A stretch of 64,000 nt of DNA from a virus, in the IMG/VR virus record IMGVR_UViG_3300045256_000135, positions 96,001 to 160,000 of that record; one strand, 5' to 3'. A program made the position numbers and the translations under genes. Each line of letters begins with the position of its first letter. The first letter of the stretch is position 1. Positions 8,342-32,220 of this stretch are shown here, piece by piece. The notes under the pieces are model-generated. The model had not been told where the DNA came from, ran no database searches, and was given only the letters and a program-made list of their open reading frames with translations.

Positions 8342-10786
8342 ATGCCCGTAGCTAGCAACGTGTACCTGGATCCCGGGGTATACCAAGAGGAAGTGATTAA
8401 CCCCAATGCCCTTGCACTTGGGCAGCTGGTTTCACTTCTGGCGGTAGTTGGCATTGCGCCGAGACTTCGCTATGTATACAACGAAGCGGTCCGTCGTGGT
8501 CAAGTGGCAAATGAGTCTGTTACCTTTGCGGGTAGCTCACCTCACACAGCTACGACGATTAACATCGCTACTAGAAAGCAGGATGACACAGTTCTGATTC
8601 GCAACGGAACTGATGTGATGCCGGATAACTCGTATCAGTGGCTACCCGCCACTGTTACGGGAATCAATGGCACATTCAACATTGCTGCCAACTCGTTCTT
8701 GACCATGAACATGGACAAGAAGGGTTGGATCTCGATCCCGATCACTGCTGGAGCTGCTCGAACAGCAGCGCAGGTATGCACTGACATCAATTCAGCTTTG
8801 GCTGCAAGCCCTCTGTATGGTGTTGCATACAACAACGTGGCGACTGTCTCTGGCTCGGCAGTTAAGCTGTTGTCTCCGAACAGTGCTTCACCGCAACTAA
8901 GCGATATTCGGTTCATTGCAACCCCCACTGATACTCCCACGTATGGAGCTGATGCTAAAGTCATCATCTTTGGTGGCTCCAACCCGTTCATTGCTCAGTC
9001 AACGCTCCAACTGTTTGATGCGTTCTGGACTGGCACAGATACGTTCACTATCAGCTACGTAGCGGTTGACACGCTACTCGATGCGTTAGCCAACACGAAC
9101 GTTCAAGAGATCAACCGTGTTGGTATGTTCGCGAACGTAACGAGTTTCCAGAATCTGGTTGATTACACACTGAACAGCAACTCAGTGGACTGGACTCTGA
9201 ATACGAGTGCGACACTCACTGGTCTGAACGGTACATTCAACATCACCGCTGGTAACAACATTCTGCGGTGTTCGTTCAACGGCCTGGGTGTAGTTAACGT
9301 CACCCTACCAATTGGTGCAGCGATTACTGCAGCTCAGATCGCAACTGCGATTAACCAAGCGCTAATTGCTAGCAGCTTGTACGGCCCACTGTATGGTGCA
9401 GTGGCTTCAGTATCAGGTTCAGCTGTTGCTCTGACACTTCCAAGTCCGTTTAAGGACATGCCAGTTGCTCAGGGTACAAACAGCACCATCGAGTTCTATG
9501 CTGTTGCGGCCAACGCTGTAACCACGGTCTTTGGCATCTCGACACTAAGTCTGCCATTCCAAGCAAATGGTTCTGCCGACCAGCCTGTGGTTGGAGCTAC
9601 CTACTTCGTGTCATACGACTATACGAGACCAGCGACGGACTACAACTCGTCGGATCCAACCACGCACCTGTTCTACAACTCCGACGATGCTCTGGCGTAT
9701 ACCGGACCTCTGACGAAGACCAACGCGGCTCAAAATACTCTTGGCATTGCTGCCAAGATTGCGTTTGAGAACAATGCTCAGCGATTGCTTCTCATCCAGG
9801 CTAATGACTCAACCACGCCTGGGTTCCCTACAATCAATCAGATGAAAGCAGCTATTGACTCAGCTGCAAACAATTCTGGGATCACGGAGCTAGTGGTACT
9901 AGACACCAGACTTGGTGTACAGACCTATCTAGTAACTCACGTTACTAACCAAAGCTCGATCACAGAGAAGAACTACCGCAGAGGTTGGTTTGGCATGGCG
10001 CGGAACACCCCAGTTGGTGATAAGGACACCGCTGGGTCGTTTGTGTATACTGCTCAGAGAACTCTGCAGGTAACACCAGACTCACCCGGTCGCGGAAGAA
10101 TGTTACTTTCAGCGCCATCGAACGTGTCGAAGACAATCACTCTGAGTGATGGCTCAGAGAAGACAATCGCTCTCGATTCAACCTATCTCGCCGTAGCTAC
10201 TGCTGCTACAATGACTTCGTTTATCTCTCCAGCCACCGCTCTGTTGAGAAAGACGATAGTTGGCTTTGATCTTGATACATTCCAACTGTATCAGAAGGGT
10301 GAGCGCAAGACTCTCGCTGCAAGCGGTGTAAACGTCATCACTCCACTTGGAGGGAGACTAGTTCTGACAGATCCGGTTACCACTGAACAGGGAGCTGGTG
10401 GTCTGCCAGAGTTCATCGAGCCATCAGCAGGTGCTCAGAAGGACAATGCGGTTCGGGCGATTGACTCAGCATTGGATGCGAACATGGTGGGTCTGGTCCC
10501 ATCAGACCTAGCAGACTTCGTGAATGATATCAAGGGCTTTATCGCAGTTGCGATTAGAGCTCTGATCGAAGCTGGGTCCCTGGGGCGCTACACTGATCGA
10601 AACGGTCGGACTAGAGACATTGACCTCGCCACCGACATTCAAGTGTATCAGTCACCAACTGATCCAACCAAGTTCTTCTTCCGGTACTGGTTCAACATCC
10701 GCTACCCAGCCAAGCGTCTAATGGGTCAGTACTCGGTTGACAACCCGTTCGTTAACAACAACCAGAACTCAATCCAGACATCGTAA
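8342..10786 (+). CDS. contractile tail sheath protein
   Basis: N-terminal YLDPGVYQEE, typical of sheath PGVY motifs; C-terminal sheath domain (GVNVI...D.VTT; F.YWF..RYP.K); followed by the tube gene. Confidence 0.9.
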   Translation: MPVASNVYLDPGVYQEEVINPNALALGQLVSLLAVVGIAPRLRYVYNEAVRRGQVANESVTFAGSSPHTATTINIATRKQDDTVLIRNGTDVMPDNSYQWLPATVTGINGTFNIAANSFLTMNMDKKGWISIPITAGAARTAAQVCTDINSALAASPLYGVAYNNVATVSGSAVKLLSPNSASPQLSDIRFIATPTDTPTYGADAKVIIFGGSNPFIAQSTLQLFDAFWTGTDTFTISYVAVDTLLDALANTNVQEINRVGMFANVTSFQNLVDYTLNSNSVDWTLNTSATLTGLNGTFNITAGNNILRCSFNGLGVVNVTLPIGAAITAAQIATAINQALIASSLYGPLYGAVASVSGSAVALTLPSPFKDMPVAQGTNSTIEFYAVAANAVTTVFGISTLSLPFQANGSADQPVVGATYFVSYDYTRPATDYNSSDPTTHLFYNSDDALAYTGPLTKTNAAQNTLGIAAKIAFENNAQRLLLIQANDSTTPGFPTINQMKAAIDSAANNSGITELVVLDTRLGVQTYLVTHVTNQSSITEKNYRRGWFGMARNTPVGDKDTAGSFVYTAQRTLQVTPDSPGRGRMLLSAPSNVSKTITLSDGSEKTIALDSTYLAVATAATMTSFISPATALLRKTIVGFDLDTFQLYQKGERKTLAASGVNVITPLGGRLVLTDPVTTEQGAGGLPEFIEPSAGAQKDNAVRAIDSALDANMVGLVPSDLADFVNDIKGFIAVAIRALIEAGSLGRYTDRNGRTRDIDLATDIQVYQSPTDPTKFFFRYWFNIRYPAKRLMGQYSVDNPFVNNNQNSIQTS

Positions 10787-10851: not shown

Positions 10852-11313
10852 ATGCCCGTTAATCCGCCGAACACACAAGTCCGTACCTCCCATGCGATTA
10901 CACTCAGAGCCAACGGTATCACAGTTGGCATCATCCAGAGCTGGTCGCCGAACCAATCGAGAACGATTACACCGATCTACGAGATCAATCAGGCAACGTC
11001 TGGTGAGCCGATTGAGAACGTTCCGGGTAACGTGGGTGGTCTGACCATCGGTGTTTCTCGATACGATTTGTACACCAAGCGGATGGAGCAGGCGTTTGGC
11101 ACTCCAGATTCCGCAATGCTTGGTGATCACAACAACCCGTTCACCGTGCTGGAAGTTTGGAGATTCCCAAACAATACGGTGGAATCGTTGCTTTACACAG
11201 GCTGCTGGTTCTCGTCAATCGGCAGACAGTACAGCGCAACTGATGCACGCGTTGTCCTTGCCAATGCACAGCTCTCGTACGTCCGCAAGATGTTCGTCCA
11301 GAAGGGTGCGTGA
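10852..11313 (+). CDS. tail tube protein
   Basis: 153 aa right after the sheath; VG.IQS, P.YEI, E.VPG, R..LY and Y.GCW motifs of gp19-like tubes. Confidence 0.85.
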   Translation: MPVNPPNTQVRTSHAITLRANGITVGIIQSWSPNQSRTITPIYEINQATSGEPIENVPGNVGGLTIGVSRYDLYTKRMEQAFGTPDSAMLGDHNNPFTVLEVWRFPNNTVESLLYTGCWFSSIGRQYSATDARVVLANAQLSYVRKMFVQKGA

Positions 11314-11783
11314 TGAAGAAGTTGCTCTTTAGTTTCACTCTGATCTGTATGCTGGTCGTTCCAGAGGGGTGCTCTGATTGGGTTTCGAACTTCAAGAAGG
11401 ATCCAGTTGCTCAGACGCAATCCATTCTGACAACCGTACAGACTGTAGTAGACATCGCTACGATGATCTTCAAGCAGGCCTTGACGGCTCTTCCAAAGGA
11501 CAAGGTTGACGAACTTCAGAAGAAGTTTGACGATATTGTTCTTGTTATCAACAACTCGAAGACCCTGCTGATGGATGGTCTCGAAGTTGCTAAGACCGCA
11601 GGGACAAACCCAACCCTCGGAACGATTGTTGATCAGCTAACCAAGGGCGTTGTTGATCTTCAGGCCTTGGTCAACTCGATCAAGGCGACTACGGGGTCGA
11701 AATTCGGAGCTGGATCTGGACATGAAGACGATCTAGACAAGGCCGTTCACACATACCAGAAGTTCGCTGTTGAACTGAAGTGA
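11313..11783 (+). CDS. putative helical lipoprotein
   Basis: MKK, then a hydrophobic stretch and EG|C (atypical lipobox); amphipathic helical body. Confidence 0.55.
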   Translation: MKKLLFSFTLICMLVVPEGCSDWVSNFKKDPVAQTQSILTTVQTVVDIATMIFKQALTALPKDKVDELQKKFDDIVLVINNSKTLLMDGLEVAKTAGTNPTLGTIVDQLTKGVVDLQALVNSIKATTGSKFGAGSGHEDDLDKAVHTYQKFAVELK

Positions 11784-11946: not shown

Positions 11947-12552
11947 ATGGAAAAGGAAATCAAGGACGCGAAGGTTAGTGAAGCTCTAAGCTTGATGGAC
12001 GACTTAGAGCAAGAGCTAGATTCAGGCTTTCTCGAAGAGATCGTGCAGGTCCGAGGGAGACTGTGGAAACTTCGTCTGTTGTGTGACCATGAGCAGGCTT
12101 GGGCGATGGGCTATGTGAAGGGTACAACGTTCTCAGCGATTGTACTCTCTCAGAAGACTCCCACACTTGCTATCGCGATCAGAGAGATTGGCAAGTTGAA
12201 CGCTGACGGGTCAAAGTCAATGTTCAGCATCCAAGACTTCTTTGTGAAGGAGTGGGAAGAGGTGACTAAGGGCAGTGCTGCTGAGATTCAGCGCGTGCTG
12301 AACTCCACCAACCCATATGCAGCGCAGTATTGGTTAGCGGAACGAATGTTTGAGTGGCTGTCAAAGCGCCCGCACGAGTTCACCACCGAGTTGTGGACGA
12401 AGTATCAAGAGCTCATGACTCGTCGGGAGAAAGCGGAAACAGCCATGGGAAAATCCTCAGAGGAGGGTGGGAACTCGTCCCAGACGAAGACGACGAGCTC
12501 GTCTCCCTCCTCAGAGACCACCCAGAGCTCCACTGGCGCTGGCAACAGCTAA
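11947..12552 (+). CDS. tail assembly chaperone (gpG-like)
   Basis: Lies between tube and tape measure; acidic and helical; low-complexity S/T tail after the slippery site. Confidence 0.8.
   Translation: MEKEIKDAKVSEALSLMDDLEQELDSGFLEEIVQVRGRLWKLRLLCDHEQAWAMGYVKGTTFSAIVLSQKTPTLAIAIREIGKLNADGSKSMFSIQDFFVKEWEEVTKGSAAEIQRVLNSTNPYAAQYWLAERMFEWLSKRPHEFTTELWTKYQELMTRREKAETAMGKSSEEGGNSSQTKTTSSSPSSETTQSSTGAGNS
12447..12453 (+). other. programmed -1 ribosomal frameshift site G GGA AAA
   Basis: In-frame X XXY YYZ heptamer (ATG GGA AAA); the -1 frame is open to 13100; analogous to lambda G/GT GGGAAAG. Confidence 0.85.
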
Positions 12553-13100
12553 AGATCAAGGCACGCGTCTGTTCTGACAAGCACATCCTACTCTCGGATC
12601 CGAGAGTACGGGAGATGTCACGTACACGATGGCTATTCGAAGCTTGGCAGCTTCGAATGAAGGATGCGAAACACCAGAAAGAGGTCAATACCATCGGGAA
12701 ACAGGGACTTGAGGCGATTCGTGATATACTAATCTCATTACTCGGTTTGAATCTTGCGCCAATTCCCGATGGCACTGATGAGAAAGGTGAGCCAAAGTAC
12801 CGATGGCCTGGCGAGGGTGAATATACACCCATGTTGTTTGCTATCGCAAGGCCAGACTATGCTTCAACTGTGTCAGAAGCAGTCAAAACACTCATCCCGC
12901 AAGAGTTTGACGATCAGCCAGTTCAAGATTTCTCCGAGGACGATCTGGAGTTCTTTGACGAGCTTCAAGCTGACCCAAAGACAGCTTTTTGGAATTCAGA
13001 CGAGATGATCCAGCAACGGAAGGCGTACATCAAAGAGGATGCCTCGATTCCAGCAACCAAGCCTACGCGTGTGAAGATAGAGATAGACGATGACACTTGA
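12453..13100 (+). CDS. frameshift extension of tail chaperone (gpGT-like, about 384 aa fusion from 11947)
   Basis: -1 frame reads GKILRGGWELVPDEDD...; no good independent start; overlaps the tape-measure start. Confidence 0.8.
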   Translation: MLRGGWELVPDEDDELVSLLRDHPELHWRWQQLKIKARVCSDKHILLSDPRVREMSRTRWLFEAWQLRMKDAKHQKEVNTIGKQGLEAIRDILISLLGLNLAPIPDGTDEKGEPKYRWPGEGEYTPMLFAIARPDYASTVSEAVKTLIPQEFDDQPVQDFSEDDLEFFDELQADPKTAFWNSDEMIQQRKAYIKEDASIPATKPTRVKIEIDDDT

Positions 13101-15477
13101 CGCAGAGATTGAGCTAGAGGGCTTTGCTGCGGGTACAGATGCAGCAACTGAACTCGGTAAAGCTGTCACCGAGTATGACGCGCTCGTTGCAAAACTCAAT
13201 GCTCAATTCACTGACTTCGAGAAACTGTTTGACAGACTGAACCAAACAGTTGACAAAGAAACTGCTAAGGTCGGCAAGAACAGCGAAGCTGAGAAGGGTA
13301 AGAAGCAGGAGCTTGATCGTAAGAAACAGCAAGAGCAACAAGAGGCTGAAGAGAAACGACTAAAAGCTCAGATGTCCAAGATGCTTGGGGGCGGCGTGAA
13401 CATGATCGCCTATCAAGCTCAACTGGATAAGCTGAAGGATCAGATGTCTGCTATTGAGCAGGCTGAGAAAAAGGGGTTGGTTACATCTGGTGAGGCAAGT
13501 GACGCGCTAAGCAAGTTGTCAAAGCAATACTCGAAGCTTGAGACTGAGGCTACAGCCTATGCTATTGTTGGTGGTGGCAACATCGGCAAGATGGCGGCTA
13601 AAGCAACTGCCACGCTTCAGTCTCTTCCGGGAGCAGCTCAAGGAGCGGTCAAGAATCAGATTTCAGGCATTGGTACTGGCTTGATGGGGTTGATGAGCGG
13701 ACTTCCAATCGCTGGTGGTCTGTTTGGGCTGATGCTTTACGGTGTTACCAATCGAGATCGGTTAAACGCCGACGCAGGAGAGCTTAGCAACATCTTCCTA
13801 GCTACTGGAAAACGAGCTACTAGTGAAGCGATGGGGTACTTTAGCAGTTTTCAAGAGCAGGCTCAGAAGTACTTGGGGATGTCGAAAGCGGACGTACAAA
13901 CGGTGCTAAACACCTTTGTCAGTGCTGGGATCTCTATTGACCAGATTATGACGAAGCAGCAAGGCAACCTAGGGATGGTCACGCATGACATTGCAACCCT
14001 TTCCCTAGCCATTGATAAGCACTTCGAGATGGCTTCTGGAACATCAGCACGCAATATTGTCACTTTGATCAATGACTTTGGCATGGAGGTAGCCAAAGCT
14101 GGATCAATGTACGAGAAACTTGCGTTTGCTGGCATTCAATCTGGAGTCGGGGTTCAGAATTTCGTCGGTCAGGTGATGCAGTCAGCAACTGCACTCAAGC
14201 AGTACGGTGTGTCAGTTGAAAGTGTAGCTGCATTGTTCTTGAAAGTGCAAGAACATTACGAGAGCCTTGGTATGCCTAAGCAGCTAGCCGGAAACCAGGC
14301 GAGCATCGCGATGGGCCAAATTACATCGGGTCTAGCAAACCTCTCGAACGGTGAACAGTCGTACTTAGGCGAGCGAATGGGGCTAGGTTCTGGGCTTGAG
14401 GCTAGAATGCGGTTCCGTGAAGGTATGACACGATTGACGGGTGGGGAGGGTGGCTCCCCCGACTTCTTGGAGAATCTGCTCCGTGAAAAATACAAGGCAA
14501 CGCTCGAAGCGACTGGTGGGGACAAGACACAAGCTCGATATATCCTCGAACAGACTGGAATGGGCTACGAAGGAGCTAAGCTACTGTCTGAAATTGGCGA
14601 TGATCTTGGCAAAGGTTTGAAGCTATCAGCTTTGACCAAAGAGCAGCGTGATGCTCTAAAAGACTCGTTCATGACTGAAGGGCAGAAGCAATCAGAGCTT
14701 CAAAAAGATCAAAATCGAATCATGGCTGACATGGCGAAGATGGGTGAGGGCACTCTGCAGGTGCTAACCAATCTTGCAGGATGGTTGATCATCTATTTCA
14801 AAGAGTTCCCTGTCTTGTTGATGGGTACCAGTCAAGAGAAGTCTGAGATCAAAGCTGTTGTAGCTGAGTTTCAGCAAGGCATGAAGACCGGGTTGGGCAC
14901 TGTTTGGGATGGTTTGAAATCACTTGGAGCTGACATGGAAGCAGCTTTGAAGCCGATCATCAAACCAATCTTTGATGCATTAGAGTTCGACCCAAATAAG
15001 GCAGCTGGTGTACCAACAATGGCTACCACCATGGGTGACAAAGCTGCGAATGCTGATGCAACCACTAAAGCAGTTGCAGCTCCCTTCATGGCATGGCATA
15101 CAGCCCTAGACTCTGGTGGCGCAGCACTGCAAAAGCATGCTACAGGAATTGCAAATGTGTTGAACCGGAGTGGCTTGATCAAAGACGATCCAGCCCACAA
15201 AGGGTCTACGACTCAGGTTGTGAAGAAACTCGGTGAGTGGTCACAGTTGGGTGGGCAGATCGATTATGATATCGCTGCTGGTTTGGGTTCGCAACAGGCT
15301 AGAGCGTCTCAGTGGGCAAAAGACACCACTGGTTCTGGTGTCTTCAGTGGTGATACCACTGCTACCGCCAGAAAGAAGGAAGAGGACGACTGGGCCAAAC
15401 GAACCACCACCGTGACGGTTGACGTGTACCCCACCTCAAAGCAGGATCAACGACCTACAACGAACACGGGGCAGTAA
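13090..15477 (+). CDS. tape measure protein paralog 1
   Basis: 795 aa, helical, A/G/L/M-rich; follows the G/GT chaperone; hydrophobic LPIAGGLFGLMLYGV segment. Confidence 0.8.
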   Translation: MTLDAEIELEGFAAGTDAATELGKAVTEYDALVAKLNAQFTDFEKLFDRLNQTVDKETAKVGKNSEAEKGKKQELDRKKQQEQQEAEEKRLKAQMSKMLGGGVNMIAYQAQLDKLKDQMSAIEQAEKKGLVTSGEASDALSKLSKQYSKLETEATAYAIVGGGNIGKMAAKATATLQSLPGAAQGAVKNQISGIGTGLMGLMSGLPIAGGLFGLMLYGVTNRDRLNADAGELSNIFLATGKRATSEAMGYFSSFQEQAQKYLGMSKADVQTVLNTFVSAGISIDQIMTKQQGNLGMVTHDIATLSLAIDKHFEMASGTSARNIVTLINDFGMEVAKAGSMYEKLAFAGIQSGVGVQNFVGQVMQSATALKQYGVSVESVAALFLKVQEHYESLGMPKQLAGNQASIAMGQITSGLANLSNGEQSYLGERMGLGSGLEARMRFREGMTRLTGGEGGSPDFLENLLREKYKATLEATGGDKTQARYILEQTGMGYEGAKLLSEIGDDLGKGLKLSALTKEQRDALKDSFMTEGQKQSELQKDQNRIMADMAKMGEGTLQVLTNLAGWLIIYFKEFPVLLMGTSQEKSEIKAVVAEFQQGMKTGLGTVWDGLKSLGADMEAALKPIIKPIFDALEFDPNKAAGVPTMATTMGDKAANADATTKAVAAPFMAWHTALDSGGAALQKHATGIANVLNRSGLIKDDPAHKGSTTQVVKKLGEWSQLGGQIDYDIAAGLGSQQARASQWAKDTTGSGVFSGDTTATARKKEEDDWAKRTTTVTVDVYPTSKQDQRPTTNTGQ

Positions 15478-16259
15478 TGGCGCTCGCAGATTTGGCTTCA
15501 GCACTGACTCAGTCACTTTTTAACAAAGGTGATGGTCTTCAACCGGTTCGAGTCCCAATGGTGTTCTCTTGCACTAGTTGGAGAGCACGGAACATACCAC
15601 CGCTTGCGTTTAGAGTCAACCCTCACCAAGTGGTATTCAAACAAGCGAAGCGTATCTCGAAGAAGAACACTCGAGGTGGGACCGTTTACTGGCACTGGGC
15701 CGACGATCAGGGATCCGACAACGACATCCTGGAGATGCAGTTTCGTGGTAGAACTGGTTCGATTCTGAACAAACCAAACGATGCTAGTGCAGCACCAGGT
15801 GGACCAGCATCAGCCAACTCTCCACTTGTCGGACTAACCAATCCAATCAGTCAAGACAACCCCACTCCAACTGCTGGTGCAACAAAACACTATCAGTGGG
15901 CTCGATTGTATCAGTTGACTAGCCTCCCGACTCTGGACAAAGAGCTGAACCAACTCAACCTGTCTACCGTAATCTACAGAAGCCCACTCTTTCCCAACCC
16001 TGTTCAGTTTACGGGGTTCTTCAACCAAGTCTTGGACTTTGACGAAGTTGCCGAACGTCCGTTTATGACTGAGTATTCGTTCACGTTTGTGGTTCAGAAG
16101 ACACAACCAAACCTAAACACGCTGACTGAGTACCTAGCGCAGGCTCTGCTGATCAACCCACAACAGTCTGCTGCAATCAACAATGCAGTAGCAACAGCTA
16201 ATGCACAACAACAAGCGAACACTGGAGCTGTAACAGGGTCAAACACGAGAAATGGCTGA
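15477..16259 (+). CDS. putative tail-tube initiator / baseplate tube-like protein
   Basis: F.VNP..V...K......TRGG...HW, F.G.TG and F.GFF...F.E....PF..EYSF.F.V motifs; position after the TMP. Confidence 0.6.
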   Translation: MALADLASALTQSLFNKGDGLQPVRVPMVFSCTSWRARNIPPLAFRVNPHQVVFKQAKRISKKNTRGGTVYWHWADDQGSDNDILEMQFRGRTGSILNKPNDASAAPGGPASANSPLVGLTNPISQDNPTPTAGATKHYQWARLYQLTSLPTLDKELNQLNLSTVIYRSPLFPNPVQFTGFFNQVLDFDEVAERPFMTEYSFTFVVQKTQPNLNTLTEYLAQALLINPQQSAAINNAVATANAQQQANTGAVTGSNTRNG

Positions 16260-18417
16260 CATCAAGCTTGAAGGTGCGGTCGACCGATTTAAGAAGCTCG
16301 GAAATGAGCTAGAAAAGCTAATCTCGAGCAAAATCTCGGTAAACGACTCCCTCGCTTCTGTAATTGCTAAGTACAATCAGCCGTCTCCAGCAGAGGTAGA
16401 AGTCCTGCGAACTGAGTTGGTCACAAAGCAAAGAGAGCTGAAAGAGTATGCTCCCTTGTTTGGTGATCGCAGTACTTTGAAGCAAGCGCTCGAATTGAAT
16501 CAGATTCACCAGAAGGTGGTGGATGTTCAAAAAGCAATGCGTATGGGCATTGTGGACATCGAAGCGGGTGAGGAGCAGCTAGCAAAGCTCAGACATGAGA
16601 TGAGTCTTGCTGAGCTAAAAGCACACTCTTTTAGCATGTCTGGCTTGACAGATGAACAGGGTGGTAAAAGTAGCGGTGGGCTTGGATCAAAGCTAGAGGC
16701 TGGAGCAACTGAAGGCATAAACGCAGCAATCACAAAAGTATGCTCAACAATCAGTGGCGAGGCTGCCGGAATTGCGGAAGGTTTACTCGGTTTGTCATCA
16801 GCTCTTCCGGTGGCCGGTGGTCTGTTTGGCTTACTGATGTACGGTGTTAAGGAGCACGATAGACTTCAGCAACAGTCTGGTGCTTTGCTGAACGTCGTGA
16901 GTGCTTACGGAGCAGAAAGCTATCGGAAGTCGATAGCTTGGCTTGACGGTTTTCAAGAGCGAGCCCAGAAATTCTACGGTATTAGTCGAGGAGCAGTTCT
17001 AAGCATCGTTTCGCAATACGTAAACGCAGGCGTAAGCTTGTCTGATTTTCTTTCGGTTTATGATGCTAGCTTAGGCGAAGTGGGGACTAATGCCGTCACA
17101 GCAACCCTAGCTCTGGATAGGACCTTCGAATTGGCAAATGGGTTCACTGCTCGCGGAGCCATTGCACAGATGCGTGCTCATGGCTACTCGATGCATGATG
17201 CCGTGTCTAGAATGGCCTTGATGGAGTCTGCCGTAGCAAAAGCAGGGCTTGGAGTTGAGCGAACTATCACTTGGGCTCTCCAAGCTGCTCAAAACGTGCG
17301 TAGGTTTGGTATAGACGCACAGCAACTAGTAGAAGCATCAATCGCGTTCAGCAGATCACGGAGAAACAAAGGCCTCGGCCAGCAAACTGGTGTTGCACAG
17401 GGTCTGTCCGAATTCACACAGGGACTCTCTTCGTTGTCGACCGCTCGTGAGCTGTGGATGGCGGAACAACTTGGGTACGGTAAGGGTCTACTTGGTCGAT
17501 GGGCTATGCGTGACATGTTGAAGAACGTTGATTCAACTCGTCTCTTGCAGATTGCTAAGATGTTCAGAGATGAAGCTGTCAGGTCTGGTGGAGATGAGAC
17601 TAATGCTCGATTCTTCCTTGAGCGGCAGGGTTTCGGGTTTGAAGGAGCTAGAGCTATCTACGAGCTGGGGGATTTGACTAACAAGGACTTGAAGTTGTCT
17701 GAGCTTGATGCGCAAGCTCTTGGAAACCTCCGCTCTGCATTTGTTGACGAGGGCAGTAAGGTTTCTGAAAATCAACGAAAACTGAACGCGATTTTGGCGA
17801 GTATGCGAACTGTTGCTCAAACCTCTATGAGCATCCTCAGTGACGCGGTTGCGTTTGTGATTGTTGGTGTAGAGTCGCTTCCGTATATCATGTTGGGTAC
17901 CGGTGCTCAGAGAAGGGCAGCATATGCTGAGCTAGAGAGGATCACAGGTGATCTGACCGGAAACGCAGCACTGTTTTGGTCTGGCTTGAAAAGCACCGGC
18001 GAAGGGATAGGCCAGATTCTTGAGCCACACATTCGACCAATTGTCAAAGCATTGGTGTTTGATCCAAAAGTCTCACTAGCACAAAGGGACGCTGCCATAC
18101 AAGCTGCTTCAGATACTGAGAAGCACACTAATCGAGTTGCCGCTTGGCAGAATCCAGTACTCAGACCGGTTGGTGATGCAATGCTATTTGGAGCAAAGAC
18201 AGTTAACCAGGGTCTAAAGGCAACAGGGGCTGATACAACTGACACGGACAAGTGGGGAATTGTCTCTGATCAGAGGATTCAAAAGACCGAACAAACGAGA
18301 GATGAGGCCGATAGCAATGGACCACATTCGATGGCACCAGTTATCAAGCGGCGGATGCACCCTGGAGCTGATTCAGCTGATTCAGTACGTGTTCAAGTGA
18401 CGGTTGCTTATGGCTGA
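16252..18417 (+). CDS. tape measure protein paralog 2
   Basis: 721 aa; collinear motifs shared with 13090 (LPVAGGLFGLLMYGV, FQERAQKFYGIS, ARFFLERQGFGFEGA). Confidence 0.75.
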   Translation: MADIKLEGAVDRFKKLGNELEKLISSKISVNDSLASVIAKYNQPSPAEVEVLRTELVTKQRELKEYAPLFGDRSTLKQALELNQIHQKVVDVQKAMRMGIVDIEAGEEQLAKLRHEMSLAELKAHSFSMSGLTDEQGGKSSGGLGSKLEAGATEGINAAITKVCSTISGEAAGIAEGLLGLSSALPVAGGLFGLLMYGVKEHDRLQQQSGALLNVVSAYGAESYRKSIAWLDGFQERAQKFYGISRGAVLSIVSQYVNAGVSLSDFLSVYDASLGEVGTNAVTATLALDRTFELANGFTARGAIAQMRAHGYSMHDAVSRMALMESAVAKAGLGVERTITWALQAAQNVRRFGIDAQQLVEASIAFSRSRRNKGLGQQTGVAQGLSEFTQGLSSLSTARELWMAEQLGYGKGLLGRWAMRDMLKNVDSTRLLQIAKMFRDEAVRSGGDETNARFFLERQGFGFEGARAIYELGDLTNKDLKLSELDAQALGNLRSAFVDEGSKVSENQRKLNAILASMRTVAQTSMSILSDAVAFVIVGVESLPYIMLGTGAQRRAAYAELERITGDLTGNAALFWSGLKSTGEGIGQILEPHIRPIVKALVFDPKVSLAQRDAAIQAASDTEKHTNRVAAWQNPVLRPVGDAMLFGAKTVNQGLKATGADTTDTDKWGIVSDQRIQKTEQTRDEADSNGPHSMAPVIKRRMHPGADSADSVRVQVTVAYG

Positions 18418-21019
18418 TTTGCATTCATTGACTGCAGCCCTGCAAGGATTCGGGGCTGGAATGGTCAAGCTGAATGGTTTGCTTGGAAAGTTCTCAGAGA
18501 CTCGAGAGAAGTGGCTAGAGAAACCTGTTGAACTTCCAGCACCTCCACAGCCAAAGCACCCTCTCGGTGATGAGCATCAAGAGCTTCTTGACATCAAGCT
18601 CGACGCTGGGAAGATTGGTGGACTACTCGAAGAGAGTTACTTCGAGCAGATGGCTACTATTCAGGTTCAGATCAGTGAGGTGAATGCTGCTGTTCGTTTG
18701 GGTGTGGTTGATAAGAAGCATGCGTCAGAGCTGCTAGCAGAGCTGGAAGAGAAGTATGCTACTCTTGGTCGTGAAGCAAAAGCGCACGACTTTGGTGGTG
18801 CTGGCGCAGTGGAGCTTCTTCGGCAGGTGTCAGACGCTCCAAACAAAGCCATGCAGTTCGTGAAGGATCAGTTTGCTGGAATCGCAACTGGCACTTTGGG
18901 GCTTGCAGCAGGTTTACCAATAGCTGGTGGTCTGTTTGGTTTGCTGATGTACGGTGTCACTGAAAAAGATCGTATGGCGGTGCAAGCTGGTGAACTGACG
19001 AACATTATGTCTGCGTCTGGTAGATCGGTATCGTCTAGTTTTCTGCAATTTTACGCCAGTTTCCAAGAGAATGCTCAGCAATTCATGGGCATGAGCAGAA
19101 GCGATGTTCAGTCGATTATCTCGACTCTTGTGCAATCAGGGGCAGTGCTAGATGGGTTAAGCACTAACTGGCACTCAGAGCTGGGGGTTGTTGGGCATGA
19201 CGTGATTACGATGTCTCTAGCGTTTGATAAGCTCTTTGAGGAGGCCACGGGGACAACGATCAGTGAGGCTATAGAAACCTCTCGAAACTACGGGGTAAGT
19301 CTAGAATCAGCCACGCTATCTATGATCAAGATCGGGTTCTCTGCAAGTAAGGCTGGAACATCGATCTCTGGCTTCATGAAATACGTGACGGATCTAGAGC
19401 CACAGCTTCGCTATTACAGAGCTGACGCTGAATCGATTGCAGCACTCACTATCTCTCTTCAGGAGGAGTACGAAAACGCGGGGATGGTAGCCTCTGTTGC
19501 AATGGCGACCGCAAAGCAAGGTATGCAACAGATTAGTCAGGGGTTGTCCAATCTTAGCATTGGTGTGAAGGCTCACGTTGGCGAGCAGTTAGGGCTGGGT
19601 GATGGCGTTGATGCCGCCTACGCTCTGACTGATTCGATTAAGAACGCTGATTCGCAGATGTTCTTCAGCACGTTGAAGCAGATCGCCTCACTCGCCGAAA
19701 AAGAGACAAAAGGTACTGGTACTGAGCTCCTGAGTCCAGACGATAAGATCCGCTATTACCTAGAGAACCAGCTTGGGATGGGTTTCGAGGGTGCTTTGGC
19801 TCTATCCAAGATTCTGAAAATGCAAAGCTCTCAAGCAAAGCTTGGAGAAGTTGAAGCGTCGGATTGGGCGTTGTTACGAGACTCGTTCAAGACTGAAGCA
19901 GAGAAGCAGTCCGAGCTAGAGAAGGACAAGAACGAGATTCTGAAGGGGATGGCGAACGTTGGGCAGGGCATGCTTGGCACGCTTCTCTCGTTTTCTGGAT
20001 TTGCGATTATTGCGATCAAGGGCCTGTTCTCGATGCAGTATGGTGATTGGAATGCCATGTTAGCCAATTTTGGAGGGCAAGCGTTGTCGGCTGGGCTAGG
20101 CGCTATTGACGTTGATATCACATCAATCAACTTCGTTCCGAGATCTGCTCAAAATCTGGCAGTTTACCAAAAAGAGCAGGAATTCTTCAATCAGATGGGT
20201 GACCAGTTCCACCAGGTGGTTACAGGTACCAGCATGATTGGAAATGGCATCGGAAAGATTGCGTATCCACTCATTGTACCGTTATTAAAAGCACTAGGTT
20301 ACAAGTCTGGCTGGACTTCAATTGTTGGACAAGCTGCGGGACAGACAATTGCAAACTTTGACGCCGCAGTAGCTAAGGCAGCTCCAGGTGTTTACAAAAC
20401 CCTTGCTGATGCTCCAAAGAAGTTGGTTCAAGCTGATGGCAAATACACTGCCTACGCACCAGCTGGTTCAACACTGGTTGAGACCAAAAAGATGCCTGTA
20501 ACCTACGAGCAAGTCAGGGCTGCGGTTGCTGAGGCGTTCAAGCAAGTGACTGGTGCTATGCCGTCAGAAGAGCTAGCTGACACATTAGCCGCGCAGGCGT
20601 GGTTTGAATCGGGTCAAACAGGTGGGCTCTACAACTACAACTTCGGCGGTGTGAAAGGAAAAGGCACAACGGGGCAAACTGCTCTGTTTGCAACCCATGA
20701 AGTGATCAACGGTGAGACCTTAGCTGTGAAGGACTTCTTTCGAGCATACGAAACCCTGCTCGATGGTGCCATTGACTACGTCAAGATCCTCAAAGGTCGC
20801 TATCAGTCTGCGATTGACGCTGCTCAGCATGGGGATGTTGAAGGGTACGTACACAAGCTGAAGGAACGTGGTTACTTCACTGGTGATGAAGCGAAGTACA
20901 AGCAGTTCATTTCGTCGATCATCAAAGCACACCAGAAACCCAAAGTTAACGTCACAGCAACGATGAACAAGACGCCAGACGGCAACGAAGTAAGAGTCGT
21001 TACGCAGATCTCTCATTAG
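18410..21019 (+). CDS. tape measure protein paralog 3 with C-terminal GH73 (FlgJ-like) peptidoglycan hydrolase
   Basis: Same collinear motifs, plus AQAWFESG, YNFGGVK, T.E, FRAY and GYFT motifs of glucosaminidase/muramidase (about 20490-20930). Confidence 0.8.
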   Translation: MADLHSLTAALQGFGAGMVKLNGLLGKFSETREKWLEKPVELPAPPQPKHPLGDEHQELLDIKLDAGKIGGLLEESYFEQMATIQVQISEVNAAVRLGVVDKKHASELLAELEEKYATLGREAKAHDFGGAGAVELLRQVSDAPNKAMQFVKDQFAGIATGTLGLAAGLPIAGGLFGLLMYGVTEKDRMAVQAGELTNIMSASGRSVSSSFLQFYASFQENAQQFMGMSRSDVQSIISTLVQSGAVLDGLSTNWHSELGVVGHDVITMSLAFDKLFEEATGTTISEAIETSRNYGVSLESATLSMIKIGFSASKAGTSISGFMKYVTDLEPQLRYYRADAESIAALTISLQEEYENAGMVASVAMATAKQGMQQISQGLSNLSIGVKAHVGEQLGLGDGVDAAYALTDSIKNADSQMFFSTLKQIASLAEKETKGTGTELLSPDDKIRYYLENQLGMGFEGALALSKILKMQSSQAKLGEVEASDWALLRDSFKTEAEKQSELEKDKNEILKGMANVGQGMLGTLLSFSGFAIIAIKGLFSMQYGDWNAMLANFGGQALSAGLGAIDVDITSINFVPRSAQNLAVYQKEQEFFNQMGDQFHQVVTGTSMIGNGIGKIAYPLIVPLLKALGYKSGWTSIVGQAAGQTIANFDAAVAKAAPGVYKTLADAPKKLVQADGKYTAYAPAGSTLVETKKMPVTYEQVRAAVAEAFKQVTGAMPSEELADTLAAQAWFESGQTGGLYNYNFGGVKGKGTTGQTALFATHEVINGETLAVKDFFRAYETLLDGAIDYVKILKGRYQSAIDAAQHGDVEGYVHKLKERGYFTGDEAKYKQFISSIIKAHQKPKVNVTATMNKTPDGNEVRVVTQISH

Positions 21020-27420: not shown

Positions 27421-30400
27421 ATGAGCACAGCCCTCATTACGATCAATCAGTCCGGTAAGCCTGCAGGTGTCTCCGATCAATCAAGAGATGACCTCGCTCT
27501 CTACACAGGACCAGGGACTGAGATTCAACTAAGCTATTCAGGGGTCGGAGCGACCACGTTTCAGTGGCTTATCATTGATCAGCCACCCGGAGCAACCGCC
27601 ACTCTTTCAACACCAACTCTCGCAACTACCAACTTGGTAAATGCAACGGTAGCTGGTAGCTACCTAATCCAACTGGTAGTCGATGGTGGTGGTTCTATTG
27701 GGCAGATTACCCGAAGAATTGCCGCAATTCAGATGAACACTCCAAGCTGGGTAACTCCAAGCTTGAACCGGCCACTCCGCATCCCCGCCACCTCCGAGAC
27801 CAACGAGTTTAACGTTGACTCAAGTCCTGGGTCAGGCACCAACCTTCGCGGTTGGGCTTTGGAGATGGACCACTTTTTCAGAACAATCGTCAACTTTGCG
27901 TTTGGCACGATTGTCTCAGTTAACGGTGTTCAAGTTGGCACAGAAGCATTTCGACAGATTAACTTCTCCTCAGCGTTCTCCGGTGCTGATGCTGGTTCTG
28001 GGCAGGTAGACATTGGCTTGTCTGGATCGGTAGGTGGGATCTCAAACCTCAAGAACAACAATGTTGCTGTTGCTGGTTCTCCCTTCACAACCCTAGATTC
28101 GATCACACCAGACATCGCCACATCGTTTACGTATCAACCCACGCTAAACGTACAGTTTGAGAATGGTAGTAGCAATACCGGAAGACTGATCGCGACTGCA
28201 GGTGCCCACCAAGATCTTTCGCACGCACCTGGTATCGTTAAGGATCCAACTGTAACGCAGGCTGGGCTAGCCACTACGGTTAACACGGGTCCGAATCCGA
28301 TGACAGTTGCTGTCGCCGCACTTAATGCAGGTGGCACGCCAATTAGTGTGGTAACAAAGGGTCGAGTCGTAACACCTACCCAACTCCCATCAGGGTTTAC
28401 TGTCTCGCTCGCATCTCCTGGTACTACGCGCACTTTATACGATGTGTACCTCAAGTCGACCGACCTAACCCTAGACTTGTACGTGTACGCACAGACACTG
28501 AGTGCTAATGCTCCAGCAGTTCTGATTAACACGTCTCCGAATTTTCCAACGGGTTCCTACACTCTTGCAGTTGATGGGGCTGGTTTGTGGACGTTTGGGG
28601 GTGGTGAAAGCGTACTACAAGACGTGACCCAAGCTCAAGAAGTGATGCGGCTGTATTTGCCGAACGCCGTTGACTGGGTTGAGATCTATCGTTACACCAC
28701 CTCCGGTGCTGTTTCTGATAGTTGGACGATCAATGCCTGCAACCCCAACCACTACCTACCAATCTTTAGAGCACCCTACTGGCTAAACCCAGCTGGTAGC
28801 GTTAGCACATGGGGTTGGGCACAAAGCGGAACCCAGCGAGTCATTGACACTCGTCCCTACGGTACTGAGGATCTAGCACATGCACAAGACTCAATTCTGA
28901 AGCGAATCGATCTTGTTGGTGCTGACCAATGTCTGGACTTCGGGGTTGTGTTTTCGCACAAGCGAACTCTCAATTCTGCAACAGACCAAGGTGTTGACAG
29001 CTTTGCACTTACTACAGCAGGCGGTGCAGCTCCAGCAAACGCTACAGGTATCACAGGCGGTGCTGTTTGGATTCGAGGCCGCCGCTATGAAGTGAAGAGT
29101 ACGACACTGTTCTCTTCGCTCGGGTTGCTTTCAACCTACGCTGTTGTGGGTGTGACCGTTGGGCCAAATCAAACTCCAGCGATCACTGCAGTAACTGCGG
29201 TTTCTCCGGCAAATCTTATCAGTTTCGTACGCGCTCAAGTGCTGAAGCTGAAGCTGAATCCAACAGGGCAAGACATTGAAGAGACTGTGTTTTGCCCGCT
29301 GTACTTTGGGTCGATTAACGCCAGCTCCGTTATGGTGGTAGACGAACGAATCGATCTGCGCAGAAACGTTGGCAGTCTCAATACGTGGACTGTCGGAACT
29401 CGTACCTACGATGCTCTGACTGCTATCGGCACTGCCCTTCAAGGTTCAGTTGCGTACAACGGCAACATGGTAACCGATTACTTCGGTCCAGAGTACGAGA
29501 GCGTAGCATCCGCTCTACTTTGGCACGGTGTGATCACAGGTTCGAACAACCTGGAGCGTAACGGTGGTACGCTAGATAACCCGCCAACAAAGATTGAAAT
29601 CATTCGCGACACTTACGAGACCTTCCCGATTACGCTGTGGAATAACGTCTCTATCAGGGGTTGTGGCTTCCCTGCCATCAATATCACTCCGAGAGGCAAC
29701 TCAGCCTATCATGGGGCTGGGTTTCTCTACATTGGTGGCACTACGGCGCTAGCTGCTGGTGTTGGTAATCAGCTCTGCTACAACGTTGAAGTCAGTGGTG
29801 TTCGAATTGTAGCTACTGCTATCACTGGCACTGCCGTTGGCACGGAGCTGCTAAAGCTTACCGCGCCGAAGTGGGACAACACCAACTACACAAACGTTAA
29901 GCAGCCCTACGCGAGCTTGAAGAACGTCAAGATTTCGAACGTAGAGTTTGCTGTCAGCAACGGTGCAGGTTATGTGGTTGGCTCGGGGCTTGCTGCCATC
30001 CGTGTAGTTCCAGAGAGCGGAACAGCACCGTTTACGTCTGGATTCACAAGTGATCTGAAGTTTGATCACCTAGAGCTCGCACCTCAGGCTTTCGATTCAA
30101 CTGCTGCTTCCACTCTGGTGTTTTGGGACACAGCAATTCATTTTGCCGGGACCTCAGTTGCACCACAAGTTTATACGGGTGAGAACACACTGATCGAAGG
30201 CTCCGATCTTCGTTCAAATGTGGTCGGGTTAAAGTTTGCTTCTGCTGGACAGAAGAAGCTGAGACTGTGCAATAACAAGGTTGATGTCCTAAGCAGCACA
30301 GCATCTAAGGGTCTGGAAATCACAGACTCAAAGATGCAATTGCAGGTGGTTGACAACATTTTTACACTGACATCGACAGTTGCCACTGCATATGGTGTTG

Positions 30401-32220
30401 AGGTAACATCGTCAGCACTTCTGCAGTCGATCATCTCTAGAAACACACTTGGGTTAAGTGGCACCAACAACTCTCTGTCAATTGGTGTTTATCTCAATTC
30501 AGCTGGTACGAATGACCTGCAGTTCACAGGCAACAGACTTGCTGGATTTAGAACGGGATTCTCTGCTCAAGACGTTACCACTGTGACCGTAGCTCAGAAC
30601 ACGTTCACGATTGGTACGGCTTCAATCGATGGAAGCTCGAGAGGGTTGGTACAGTCCGGGCTGCAGACTGATTTCAATGTACGTGGAAACACATTCATTG
30701 GCTTCAGAGAAGCGATTGAGTTGACTGGTTCAGGTGCTTGCCAAGGCATTCTGGTTGCGGAAAACACGATTCGCGGCCAGATTGACTACATCACTGAGGG
30801 TAGCTACCATGCCAGAGGGGTACTTTACACCTACTCTGGTGCCGTATCGTCGGTTGACATCGGATTGGTGATCCGCGACAACCTCATCCAAGACCTGGTT
30901 GGCGACGCTGGAGTCAGTGATCCTTATGGCATGCCTGGTGGTGGCATCATTGTTGGAACCTCCGCAAGAACTGGCGTGTTTTACGGCGTGACCATAAAGG
31001 GTAACACGATCAGATTCAATCATGGCGTGAGTCGAACCAGCATCTCCACAATGTGGGCCGCGGGAATCTACTGCGCTGGAAACTTCGCTGGCAGTTCTAT
31101 TCGGCAAAACCACATCATCAATAACGACACAAAGTTCAACAACACAGCCCTCGGAAACAATGGCATCGTTGTTGACAACGCTGTGGCCTATGCTGGATTG
31201 GTGGATGCAGGGGTAGACATCTCTGACAACACCATTCTGTGGATGTCTTGCAATGCCGTTGACTCTGGCGGCACTCCAGTCTGGGACAAGCAGGCGGGCA
31301 TCTCGCTATTCGGTCGTTCCGACTTGTCCTCGATCAAGAATAACACAATCAAGCTTCAGTGCAGATTGGAAACTGCTGGTAGCCGGTATGGCTACATGCA
31401 TGGCATTCTTGTTGGCCAGATTGGCACTTTGACGAATGCAGCGCAAAGACTGTCAATTGTCGGTAACACAATCGAGGGTTGTCAGATTGATTCGACTGTC
31501 AATATTCCAGGGACTGTTGGTGCTGCTATTCAGGTTGCTGGAAACGCGGTGGACATTGACATCCTCGACAACAGTGTGAAGGGCATTTTCGTCGCGCATC
31601 CCAGCTACACGATTCCAGCACTGACCAGCCTGATAACTGTTGCTGTTGAAGGTAGTGCTGCACACTCTGGCATCGGTATCAATAACAACAAGATTGTCGG
31701 ACTCAGCTCTGCAGCATTTTCTGGCGTTCCTGGTGCTCAACTTGGCGCAGGTATCAGAGTTGGATCGACCGTCTGCGCAACTTCTTCGAACGTAAGCATT
31801 CGTGGAAATCATGTTGATGTTGAGCTTAACAGTAATGCGTCTCTAACTCACTCTGGTGCGATCGTACTAGAAGCACTTGATGCGGGGGTAACCACGGTTG
31901 GTTCTCATGCAATCATCAGCGCCAACTTTGTAAAGCGTACAGACCAAGGAGGTGCTCAGAGATCTAGAGGCATCAAGGTGGTTGGGTACAACTACGGGTC
32001 GTTCAAGGCCAACAAAGTTGTCCATGCAGCTGGGCAGGCGTTCGAAGTTGAGGACATTGCAGGCACTGGTTCGGTTGTAGCCAACAACTGGGGCCAGAAT
32101 CACTGCGGTCAGATCGGGGCGGTTGGAACACACTCTCTAGACGCGGCTTCGTATCTTGCTGATCCTGTTACAGGTGTCGGCAACGTTGGTACAAACACTG
32201 ATGGAGCGATCTTCTTCTGA
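27421..32220 (+). CDS. large tail spike/fibre with PKD-like N-terminus and right-handed beta-helix (candidate depolymerase)
   Basis: 1599 aa; FQW.IID.P.G..ATL...GSY.IQL.V N-domain; many I..N.I repeats in the C-terminal half. Confidence 0.75.
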   Translation: MSTALITINQSGKPAGVSDQSRDDLALYTGPGTEIQLSYSGVGATTFQWLIIDQPPGATATLSTPTLATTNLVNATVAGSYLIQLVVDGGGSIGQITRRIAAIQMNTPSWVTPSLNRPLRIPATSETNEFNVDSSPGSGTNLRGWALEMDHFFRTIVNFAFGTIVSVNGVQVGTEAFRQINFSSAFSGADAGSGQVDIGLSGSVGGISNLKNNNVAVAGSPFTTLDSITPDIATSFTYQPTLNVQFENGSSNTGRLIATAGAHQDLSHAPGIVKDPTVTQAGLATTVNTGPNPMTVAVAALNAGGTPISVVTKGRVVTPTQLPSGFTVSLASPGTTRTLYDVYLKSTDLTLDLYVYAQTLSANAPAVLINTSPNFPTGSYTLAVDGAGLWTFGGGESVLQDVTQAQEVMRLYLPNAVDWVEIYRYTTSGAVSDSWTINACNPNHYLPIFRAPYWLNPAGSVSTWGWAQSGTQRVIDTRPYGTEDLAHAQDSILKRIDLVGADQCLDFGVVFSHKRTLNSATDQGVDSFALTTAGGAAPANATGITGGAVWIRGRRYEVKSTTLFSSLGLLSTYAVVGVTVGPNQTPAITAVTAVSPANLISFVRAQVLKLKLNPTGQDIEETVFCPLYFGSINASSVMVVDERIDLRRNVGSLNTWTVGTRTYDALTAIGTALQGSVAYNGNMVTDYFGPEYESVASALLWHGVITGSNNLERNGGTLDNPPTKIEIIRDTYETFPITLWNNVSIRGCGFPAINITPRGNSAYHGAGFLYIGGTTALAAGVGNQLCYNVEVSGVRIVATAITGTAVGTELLKLTAPKWDNTNYTNVKQPYASLKNVKISNVEFAVSNGAGYVVGSGLAAIRVVPESGTAPFTSGFTSDLKFDHLELAPQAFDSTAASTLVFWDTAIHFAGTSVAPQVYTGENTLIEGSDLRSNVVGLKFASAGQKKLRLCNNKVDVLSSTASKGLEITDSKMQLQVVDNIFTLTSTVATAYGVEVTSSALLQSIISRNTLGLSGTNNSLSIGVYLNSAGTNDLQFTGNRLAGFRTGFSAQDVTTVTVAQNTFTIGTASIDGSSRGLVQSGLQTDFNVRGNTFIGFREAIELTGSGACQGILVAENTIRGQIDYITEGSYHARGVLYTYSGAVSSVDIGLVIRDNLIQDLVGDAGVSDPYGMPGGGIIVGTSARTGVFYGVTIKGNTIRFNHGVSRTSISTMWAAGIYCAGNFAGSSIRQNHIINNDTKFNNTALGNNGIVVDNAVAYAGLVDAGVDISDNTILWMSCNAVDSGGTPVWDKQAGISLFGRSDLSSIKNNTIKLQCRLETAGSRYGYMHGILVGQIGTLTNAAQRLSIVGNTIEGCQIDSTVNIPGTVGAAIQVAGNAVDIDILDNSVKGIFVAHPSYTIPALTSLITVAVEGSAAHSGIGINNNKIVGLSSAAFSGVPGAQLGAGIRVGSTVCATSSNVSIRGNHVDVELNSNASLTHSGAIVLEALDAGVTTVGSHAIISANFVKRTDQGGAQRSRGIKVVGYNYGSFKANKVVHAAGQAFEVEDIAGTGSVVANNWGQNHCGQIGAVGTHSLDAASYLADPVTGVGNVGTNTDGAIFF

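Follow-up and report, generated by a model that had tools for sequence, protein, structure and literature searches.

In the 64,000-nucleotide stretch of DNA analysed here (the window; bases 96001-160000 of the IMG/VR record IMGVR_UViG_3300045256_000135, which is 183,244 bp long and rated complete by CheckV), three paralogous genes lie between a single pair of tail assembly chaperone products and a single baseplate hub gene. The phage is uncultured, its genes point to a contractile tail, and every long open reading frame (ORF) in the window is on the + strand. The identification of the three gene products as tape-measure-type proteins (TMPs) is well supported by their context and fold. What is new is a stable multi-gene tape measure, with two or three diverged TMP genes, across an uncultured clade. 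The best reading of the arrangement, which we hold tentatively and with slightly less than even confidence, is that all three proteins co-assemble into one mixed tape measure, whose presence in the virion, stoichiometry and division of labour would be as set out below. The features of the module are as follows (aa, amino acids).

8342..10786, + strand: tail sheath, 814 aa, from tblastn matches to annotated sheath genes
10852..11313, + strand: tail tube protein, 153 aa, from matches to phrog_985 and to phage G gp179/gp180
11947..12552, + strand: tail assembly chaperone, G-like product, 201 aa, which precedes the first TMP copy and is overlapped by an ORF in the -1 frame
12447..12453, + strand: slippery heptamer G GGA AAA for a predicted -1 frameshift, in the X XXY YYZ phase of the G-like frame
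12354..13100, + strand: -1 frame extension, which with 11947-12453 would give a GT-like fusion product through the predicted frameshift
13090..15477, + strand: TMP paralog 1 (P0001, P1), 795 aa, without an enzyme domain, from paralogy, context and an AlphaFold2 (AF2) model
15477..16259, + strand: tube-fold protein (P0004), 260 aa, a probable tail tube initiator or Dit-like ring, from Atlas, VIA-align and BFVD comparisons
16252..18417, + strand: TMP paralog 2 (P0002, P2), 721 aa, without an enzyme domain, from paralogy and the P2 clade
18404/18410..21019, + strand: TMP paralog 3 (P0003, P3) with a C-terminal lysin, 869 aa from the ATG at 18410 or 871 aa from the TTG at 18404, from paralogy and the P3 clade
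20576..20935, + strand: Glucosaminidase domain (GH73, FlgJ-like) of paralog 3, from Pfam PF01832
21101..23581, + strand: baseplate hub, 826 aa, from Atlas model matches to gp44-like/GpP-like and Phage_GPD clusters

The interval from 13090 to 21019 thus holds four coupled ORFs, not three, in the order P0001, P0004, P0002 and P0003. A reading of the sequence alone (the sequence-only reading) had described a triplet of intact ORFs of 795, 721 and 869 aa; the ORFs are as it stated, but they are not contiguous, a conserved 260-aa gene (15477-16259) lying between copies 1 and 2. The successive junctions are ATGACACTTGA between the chaperone and copy 1, TAATG between copy 1 and P0004, ATGGCTGA between P0004 and copy 2, where the start of copy 2 (16252) overlaps the stop of the 260-aa gene, and ATGGCTGA again between copies 2 and 3, where the ATG at 18410 overlaps the stop of copy 2. 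Copies 2 and 3 (16252 and 18410) have in common both this start/stop overlap and their first residues, M-A-D. The four genes are predicted from these junctions to be translationally coupled on one message with the single G/GT chaperone pair, which the three TMP copies share along with the single hub gene.

The three proteins proved to be true paralogs when they were aligned in pairs. In BLASTP comparisons, P1 and P2 are 29% identical over 540 aa (E 3e-76), P1 and P3 36% identical over 513 aa (E 2e-85), and P2 and P3 31% identical over 570 aa (E 2e-67). The motifs that the sequence-only reading had listed as shared in the same order, LP(I/V)AGGLFGL, FQE.AQ, LG.V...(S/T)LA.D..FE, R(Y/F).LE..G.G(Y/F)EGA and F..E..K.SE, are all invariant columns of the three-way alignment. 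The distance from the glycine of GGLFG to the glutamate of F..E is 320, 310 and 322 residues in P1, P2 and P3, respectively, close to the 305-316 that had been noted. The identical 14-mer GGTGGTCTGTTTGG occurs exactly at 13714, 16816 and 18926, as had been claimed, whereas none was expected from 100 shuffles. No long near-identical DNA blocks were found between the copies; recent gene conversion between them was thereby ruled out, and the shared 14-mer reflects a conserved peptide motif in copies that are old.

A strongly hydrophobic segment coincides with the LPIAGGLFGL motif in every copy (residues 198-216 of P1, 178-196 of P2 and 164-182 of P3), and a second one is present at 532-550 in P2 and at 524-542 in P3 and is weaker in the same region of copy 1. 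All copies are collinear with one another and with the single-copy TMP of a relative, Virus Rctr197k, and they diverge most at their ends in the three-way alignment. The C-termini of the P1 clade (window 15400-15477) carry an alternating V/I-x-V-x-V strand followed by a near-invariant R-P-x-T, and those of the P2 clade (window 18380-18417) have W-x-P-G about 20 residues ahead of a similar strand at the very end. The V-x-V-x-V motif is enriched in the tails of P1 (14/21) and P2 (11/12), where it may hint at a common docking element for the hub.

The context of the genes is decisive for their identification as TMPs. Copy 1 lies directly downstream of the G/GT-type chaperone, copies 2 and 3 follow further along the same coupled block, and the sheath, tube and chaperone genes upstream and the hub gene downstream complete the module. 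The order of tube and chaperone, TMP block and hub is also kept in relatives, with the hub after the TMP block in every one of them. The sheath gave tblastn matches to Gordonia phages RedWattleHog and Stormageddon (E 9e-9), Rhodococcus phage Finch (E 4e-6) and Bacillus phage G gp178 (E 4e-7), and is 39-64% identical in relatives; no match to it was found in Pfam, PHROG or PDB sequence searches. The tube protein matched phrog_985, 'virion structural protein' (E 3.9e-11), and, by BLASTP, phage G gp179 (E 2e-11) and gp180 (E 1e-10); its profile matched the solved tail tube protein 8q01 weakly (E 0.57), and it is 72-75% identical in close relatives. The 826-aa hub was recognised through Atlas model matches to the gp44-like/GpP-like and Phage_GPD clusters, with TM-scores (template modelling scores) by target of 0.74-0.84.

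The G/GT arrangement marks the gene upstream of a TMP, according to the available parts of PMC8570332 and PMC2147016. Here the G-like chaperone ORF overlaps, by 199 nucleotides, an ORF that is open in the -1 frame from 12354 to a stop at 13098-13100. The GGGAAAA heptamer is present in all six close loci (the window, L004, L005, L007, L008 and L010), and L013 has AAAAAAA in the same place, so that all 7 loci compared carry a slippery site. The orthologs of the -1 frame extension are 38-46% identical. An arrangement with one chaperone per TMP was ruled out, the two chaperone ORFs not being paralogs of each other.

The fold of the proteins was assessed on P1, for which an AF2 model from a 27-row alignment (mean predicted local distance difference test score, pLDDT, 63.6) is all helix; its two ends consist of long helices, and shorter ones make up the core at residues 245-510. 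In a Foldseek search of BFVD with this model, tape measure and minor tail proteins headed the 103 matches at E <= 1e-3, with a best E of 4e-8 and TM-scores of 0.2-0.3. The P1 model is helical, as the sequence-only reading required, and P2 and P3 would share this character, given their 29-36% identity over more than 500 aa. Together, the position after a G/GT frameshift chaperone and before a tube-initiator-like protein and a hub, the all-helical P1 model, the hydrophobic segments and the lysin of copy 3 support the proposed tape-measure-type identity.

The earlier observation that only one of the copies carries a hydrolase also holds. Pfam Glucosaminidase (PF01832) matched residues 725-844 of copy 3 with an E of 4.3e-10 and 40.7 bits, against a gathering cutoff of 30.2, and the NCBIfam FlgJ models and PHROG endolysin families likewise matched only the C-terminus of copy 3, where PDB 5dn4, FlgJ, also matched (E 1.2e-5). 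The domain is predicted to be a GH73/FlgJ-type N-acetylglucosaminidase. The enzyme of the third copy varies by genome: the window and L004 have Glucosaminidase, L010 has CHAP, the last copy of L013 has M15 and P0023 has SLT, and the third copies of L005, L014 and L018 contain no recognised enzyme domain. A Pfam scan of 52 of the 150 listed family representatives found Peptidase_M15_2 in 5, M15_3 in 5, Hydrolase_2 in 5, CHAP in 4 and M23 in 3, and weak matches to the curated TMP families TMP_3 (4e-5) and PhageMin_Tail (2e-4) in one of the 52 each.

The neighbourhoods of relatives were taken from IMG/VR and metagenome contigs and compared by BLASTP. Copy number was counted in 8 distinct genomes that cover the whole chaperone-to-hub interval; L006 (on the contig of L004), L009 (identical in sequence to L010), L015, L016 (identical to L014 in its ORF table), L019, L022 and L023 were redundant and not counted. 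Three copies are present in 6 of the 8 (the window, L004, L005, L010, L014 and L018), two in L013 (757 and 902 aa) and a single one, an intact 669-aa ORF, in Virus Rctr197k (KX853510). Profile searches of whole records found exactly three copies in the window's record, exactly 3 in four other records, two of which are complete with terminal repeats, and 1 in Rctr197k. The window's lineage has the tube-fold gene between P1 and P2, with P3 last; a sister lineage, whose sheath is about 40% identical, has all three copies side by side and the tube-fold gene after them. The expectation that relatives keep the triplet and its order was borne out, with three copies in 6/8 genomes and each copy an old orthologous lineage with intact ORFs.

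The family itself is large. A 27-sequence profile retrieved 406 cluster representatives (50% identity) at E <= 1e-3 and 228 at E <= 1e-30. The 50,697-record collection of cultured phages contains no family member except one metagenome-assembled record (Rctr197k); tblastn of P0001 and of the distant members P0054 and P0168 against the phage collection returned nothing, a genome-contig scan with profile A2 gave no match, and neither did viral scans with P0134 and P0073.

Maximum-likelihood trees were computed from 19, 21 and 173 rows, the last without P0004, proteins shorter than 600 aa and exact duplicates of locus rows. P1, P2 and P3 each form a clade of their own with one member per genome, with support of 88/88, 98/97 and 100/99, respectively, in the 19-row tree and of 94/100, 97/95 and 97/99 in the 21-row tree rooted on Rctr197k. 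The copies of the sister lineage group together (89/95), and its a/b pair split after L013 had branched off. On this grouping, the genes would have been duplicated separately in the two lineages. However, a topology that unites every third copy with a hydrolase in one clade was not rejected by the approximately unbiased (AU) test (p 0.056, log-likelihood difference 12.1). Either history may apply, and no convergence on three is claimed.

The P1 clade has the shortest branches. Between the window and L005, the nonsynonymous divergence (dN) is 0.56 for copy 1, 0.78 for copy 2 and 0.80 for copy 3, the sheath having a value of 0.32, which indicates that copy 1 evolves more slowly than copies 2 and 3. 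The sequence-only reading had called for ratios of nonsynonymous to synonymous divergence (dN/dS). These could be obtained for the near-identical sister pair L018/L019, in which they are 0.06 for copy a and 0.08 for copy c, copy b being identical, but not for the window's lineage, in which synonymous sites are saturated and the NG86 dN/dS is not computable. Despite this saturation, all ORFs are intact in every genome. These comparisons indicate that the copies are old, intact and non-redundant.

Three full-length, same-register chains made together would find their simplest use as one of each per tail. In the mechanism that we propose, anciently duplicated contractile-tail TMPs would all enter the lumen of each tube together, as parallel chains in one register; in the simplest form, one chain of each paralog would make up the usual trimeric tape measure, with the C-terminal ends at the trimeric hub. 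Copy 1 is the most conserved chain and its gene adjoins the chaperone; copy 3 would bring an exchangeable cell-wall hydrolase, and the two hydrophobic segments of each chain would help to form a membrane conduit after ejection. Of the roles of ruler, channel and hydrolysis that might be divided in this way, the sequence assigns only the hydrolase, to copy 3. In the available text of PMC11445458, TMPs are trimeric in those siphophage tails that have been solved (JBD30; 80alpha and T5 are cited there), the trimer filling the tube lumen with its C-termini anchored at the hub or tip; the paper on the phage G tail, as far as its available parts go, gives 3-6 TMP copies (PMC8570332).

A more specific form of this proposal, possible but rather doubtful in our estimate, is an obligate hetero-trimer, in which one chain of each paralog would occupy the three-fold lumen and dock on the homo-trimeric hub. 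Duplication would then have stopped at three in both sub-lineages because the lumen has three places, and the asymmetry would free two chains for the setting of length and the formation of the channel, with an exchangeable lysin borne by the remaining one. If true, such an obligate hetero-trimer would be the first hetero-oligomeric tape measure. Chains that share one tail would break the assumed three-fold symmetry of the tail core, and the reading, if true, would show a ruler protein dividing measuring, wall cutting and the membrane channel among its subunits; if only one copy is the ruler, the other two would be a new class of TMP-derived tail proteins. Sharing of one tail by the chains would also matter for annotation, in which the longest copy alone is usually called the TMP, and for the engineering of tail length or of tail-borne lysins. 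To our knowledge, the tail-length and conduit functions of the TMP have been worked out only for single-gene, homo-oligomeric TMPs. A search of the full-text literature, with subscription journals and supplements outside its scope, returned no description of several TMP paralogs in one phage, and several TMP genes in one phage are not described in the available parts of PMC3447690, PMC11445458, PMC2147016 and PMC8570332.

A number of observations weigh against co-assembly into a mixed tape measure, or against the TMP identity on which it depends. The unequal total lengths (795, 721 and 869 aa), together with N-terminal arms before GGLFG of 210 aa in P1, 190 aa in P2 and 176 aa in P3, indicate that the chains do not match in length over their full extent. 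All 21 of 21 sequences, including the single-copy TMP of the relative, have a core spacing (GGLFG to F..E) of 310-327 aa, and a spacing so constant across the family gives no length co-variation signal that would tie the copies to one ruler. The two copies of L013 do not fit a simple 1:1:1 trimer. The C-terminal V-x-V-x-V motif is less clear in P3, being present in only 6/13 of its tails against a background of 0.12-0.22. Moreover, the TM-score of the P1 model to predicted TMPs is only about 0.3, Foldseek of this model against the PDB gave nothing at E <= 1e-3, and the window proteins gave no match at E <= 0.1 or E <= 0.01 to the curated TMP families (Pfam PF10145 PhageMin_Tail and PF20155 TMP_3, TIGR01760, PHROG), which rules out the named families but not TMPs in the functional sense. 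Nor did the three-copy profile, the sheath or the 260-aa protein match anything in sequence searches of the PDB. Finally, the presence of the copies in the virion and the contact between them are what we infer. A complex prediction for the C-terminal segments (P1 500-640, P2 470-610 and P3 468-640, with ortholog alignments), run without controls, scored 0.02 against a mark of 0.32 and speaks neither for nor against binding.

Alternatively, copy 1 alone may be the length ruler, and the other two copies would be accessory proteins derived from a TMP that have taken on new roles, such as a lysin associated with the hub and a protein of the membrane channel; these might sit in the tail or baseplate and form no defined hetero-oligomer with copy 1. 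This explanation, unlikely in our judgement but one that deserves real weight, would account for the fact that only copy 1 abuts the G/GT chaperone, for its slower evolution (dN 0.56 vs 0.78/0.80, shorter branches), for the tube-initiator-like gene that parts it from copies 2 and 3 in the window's lineage, and for enzymes that reside on copy 3 only and are swapped among genomes (Glucosaminidase, CHAP, M15, SLT). It sits poorly, however, with the retention by copies 2 and 3 of the whole TMP core, the N-terminal helical arm and both hydrophobic segments, collinear with a single-copy TMP, and with the sister lineage, in which all three copies adjoin one another and precede the tube-fold gene; an accessory lysin, moreover, would have no need of a ruler-like body of 600 aa. 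Separate homo-trimers of each copy, giving three kinds of tail per burst, for example with and without lysin, as a bet-hedging mixture, would follow the known rule that TMPs are homo-oligomeric (available parts of PMC11445458 and PMC8570332), and the copies diverge most toward their ends, the parts that would meet the neck and hub. Translational coupling, however, should yield all three in the same cell at similar rates, sorting into pure homo-trimers is hard to see with one chaperone pair and very similar interaction motifs, and tails lacking the lysin would probably be defective, so that we consider this outcome improbable.

We give equally little credence to chains arranged end to end, which would total 2,385-2,387 aa and specify a tail about three times longer, of about 370 nm when the T4 ratio (925 A per 590 aa) is applied. 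The summed length is of the order of that in the distant relative phage G, which has one 2,893-aa TMP for a 450-nm tail (available text of PMC8570332), yet each copy has the full set of landmarks of the 669-aa Rctr197k TMP, so that none has become a proximal, middle or distal piece, a C-terminal strand-like motif is common to P1 and P2, and the phage G TMP has no match to the family profile and is thus not a fusion of three such units. The chance that the tail module here encodes some other kind of helical protein, carried in the virion or injected, and no tape measure, appears very small. The lack of matches to curated TMP families and to the PDB would agree with it, as would the short helices of the P1 model core (245-510), which do not form one long coiled coil. 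Against this stand the single-copy relative, which has no other TMP candidate between chaperone and hub, the conserved G/GT frameshift site directly upstream, the BFVD fold matches, the TMP-typical C-terminal lysins across the family, and the weak TMP_3 and PhageMin_Tail matches in 2/52 members.

Compared with known systems, the module is, by context, a myophage tape measure module of the phage G/Rctr197k type, and its TMPs fall outside the curated TMP families. The gp178-gp188 module of phage G (NC_023719; available parts of PMC8570332) has the same succession of sheath, tube proteins, frameshift chaperone pair, TMP and then hub and baseplate; its sheath, its tube proteins and the counterpart of o477b (similar to gp188, baseplate wedge) are homologous to those in the window (E 1e-9 to 3e-12), with o477a at E 2e-5, and its TMP, gp183, also carries a C-terminal glucosaminidase. 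In contrast, phage G has one giant 2,893-aa TMP that does not match the family profiles, whereas the window has three separate genes (721-869 aa), the first two of which are parted by a tube-fold gene. The closest record in the phage collection is Virus Rctr197k (KX853510, metagenome-assembled, 197 kb), whose sheath is 44-45%, tube 46%, tube-fold protein 37% and hub 27% identical. Its TMP belongs to the same family (A3 profile E 3e-39) and is the sole long protein at the TMP position, but it is a single copy of 669 aa. This ORF (L020 21059-23068; KX853510.1 78062-80071) is intact and is annotated as a misc_feature, 'similar to hypothetical protein'.

The homo-trimeric TMPs of siphophages (JBD30 gp46, T5 pb2 and 80alpha gp57; available parts of PMC11445458) and the TP901-type cores (PF10145) resemble the window proteins in being long and helical, in lying downstream of G/GT, in their hydrophobic segments, in an optional peptidoglycan hydrolase and in a C-terminus anchored at the hub or tip, an anchoring that would apply here as well. 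They differ in having one gene and one type of chain, and the window proteins fall below PF10145 and PF20155 at E <= 0.1. As in the G/GT chaperone of lambda, the predicted -1 frameshift would take place on a G GGA AAx heptamer in an overlap just upstream of the TMP, a likeness of arrangement; the lambda heptamer is GGGAAAG. Unlike in lambda, one chaperone pair here precedes three TMP genes.

The 260-aa product of P0004 is probably a tail tube initiator or a Dit-like ring, as suggested by its models. Its ESM Atlas features are Dit_like (0.95) and Phage_tail_tube_init (0.94). With an AF2 model of low confidence (pLDDT 58.5), the top 50 matches in VIA-align are almost all tube-fold chains, led by those from the baseplates of Pa193 (Z 8.4, in the middling range), 80alpha (Z 8.1), pyocin R2 and Mu and by the A-1(L) initiators, and BFVD gave 61 matches at E <= 1e-3. 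A homolog of P0004 follows the last TMP copy and adjoins the hub in L013, L014, L018 and L020, an arrangement not seen in the window.

Elsewhere in the window, a 157-aa ORF (11310-11783) lies between the tube gene and the chaperone; at its position, L014, L018 and Rctr197k carry a second, longer tube paralog (201-210 aa), which shares 37-46% identity with the tube protein of 153 aa. Beyond the baseplate genes, on their downstream side, is an ORF of 1,599 aa (27421-32220), with others of 950-1,390 aa at 32928-35777, 38420-41284 and 41292-45455. A PHROG scan of the ORFs at 27421-32217 and 32928-35774 gave no match, and these large ORFs probably encode fibres or large baseplate proteins. In Rctr197k, a putative homing endonuclease gene (Rctr197k_064, L020 14042-14929) lies just upstream of the sheath, and the o394 homolog that precedes it is longer (564 aa) and matches in two pieces. 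In L010 (971-5978), the sheath and tube genes, which are adjacent in the window and the other loci, are separated by about 5 kb of additional ORFs (199-365 aa) that match none of the window proteins.

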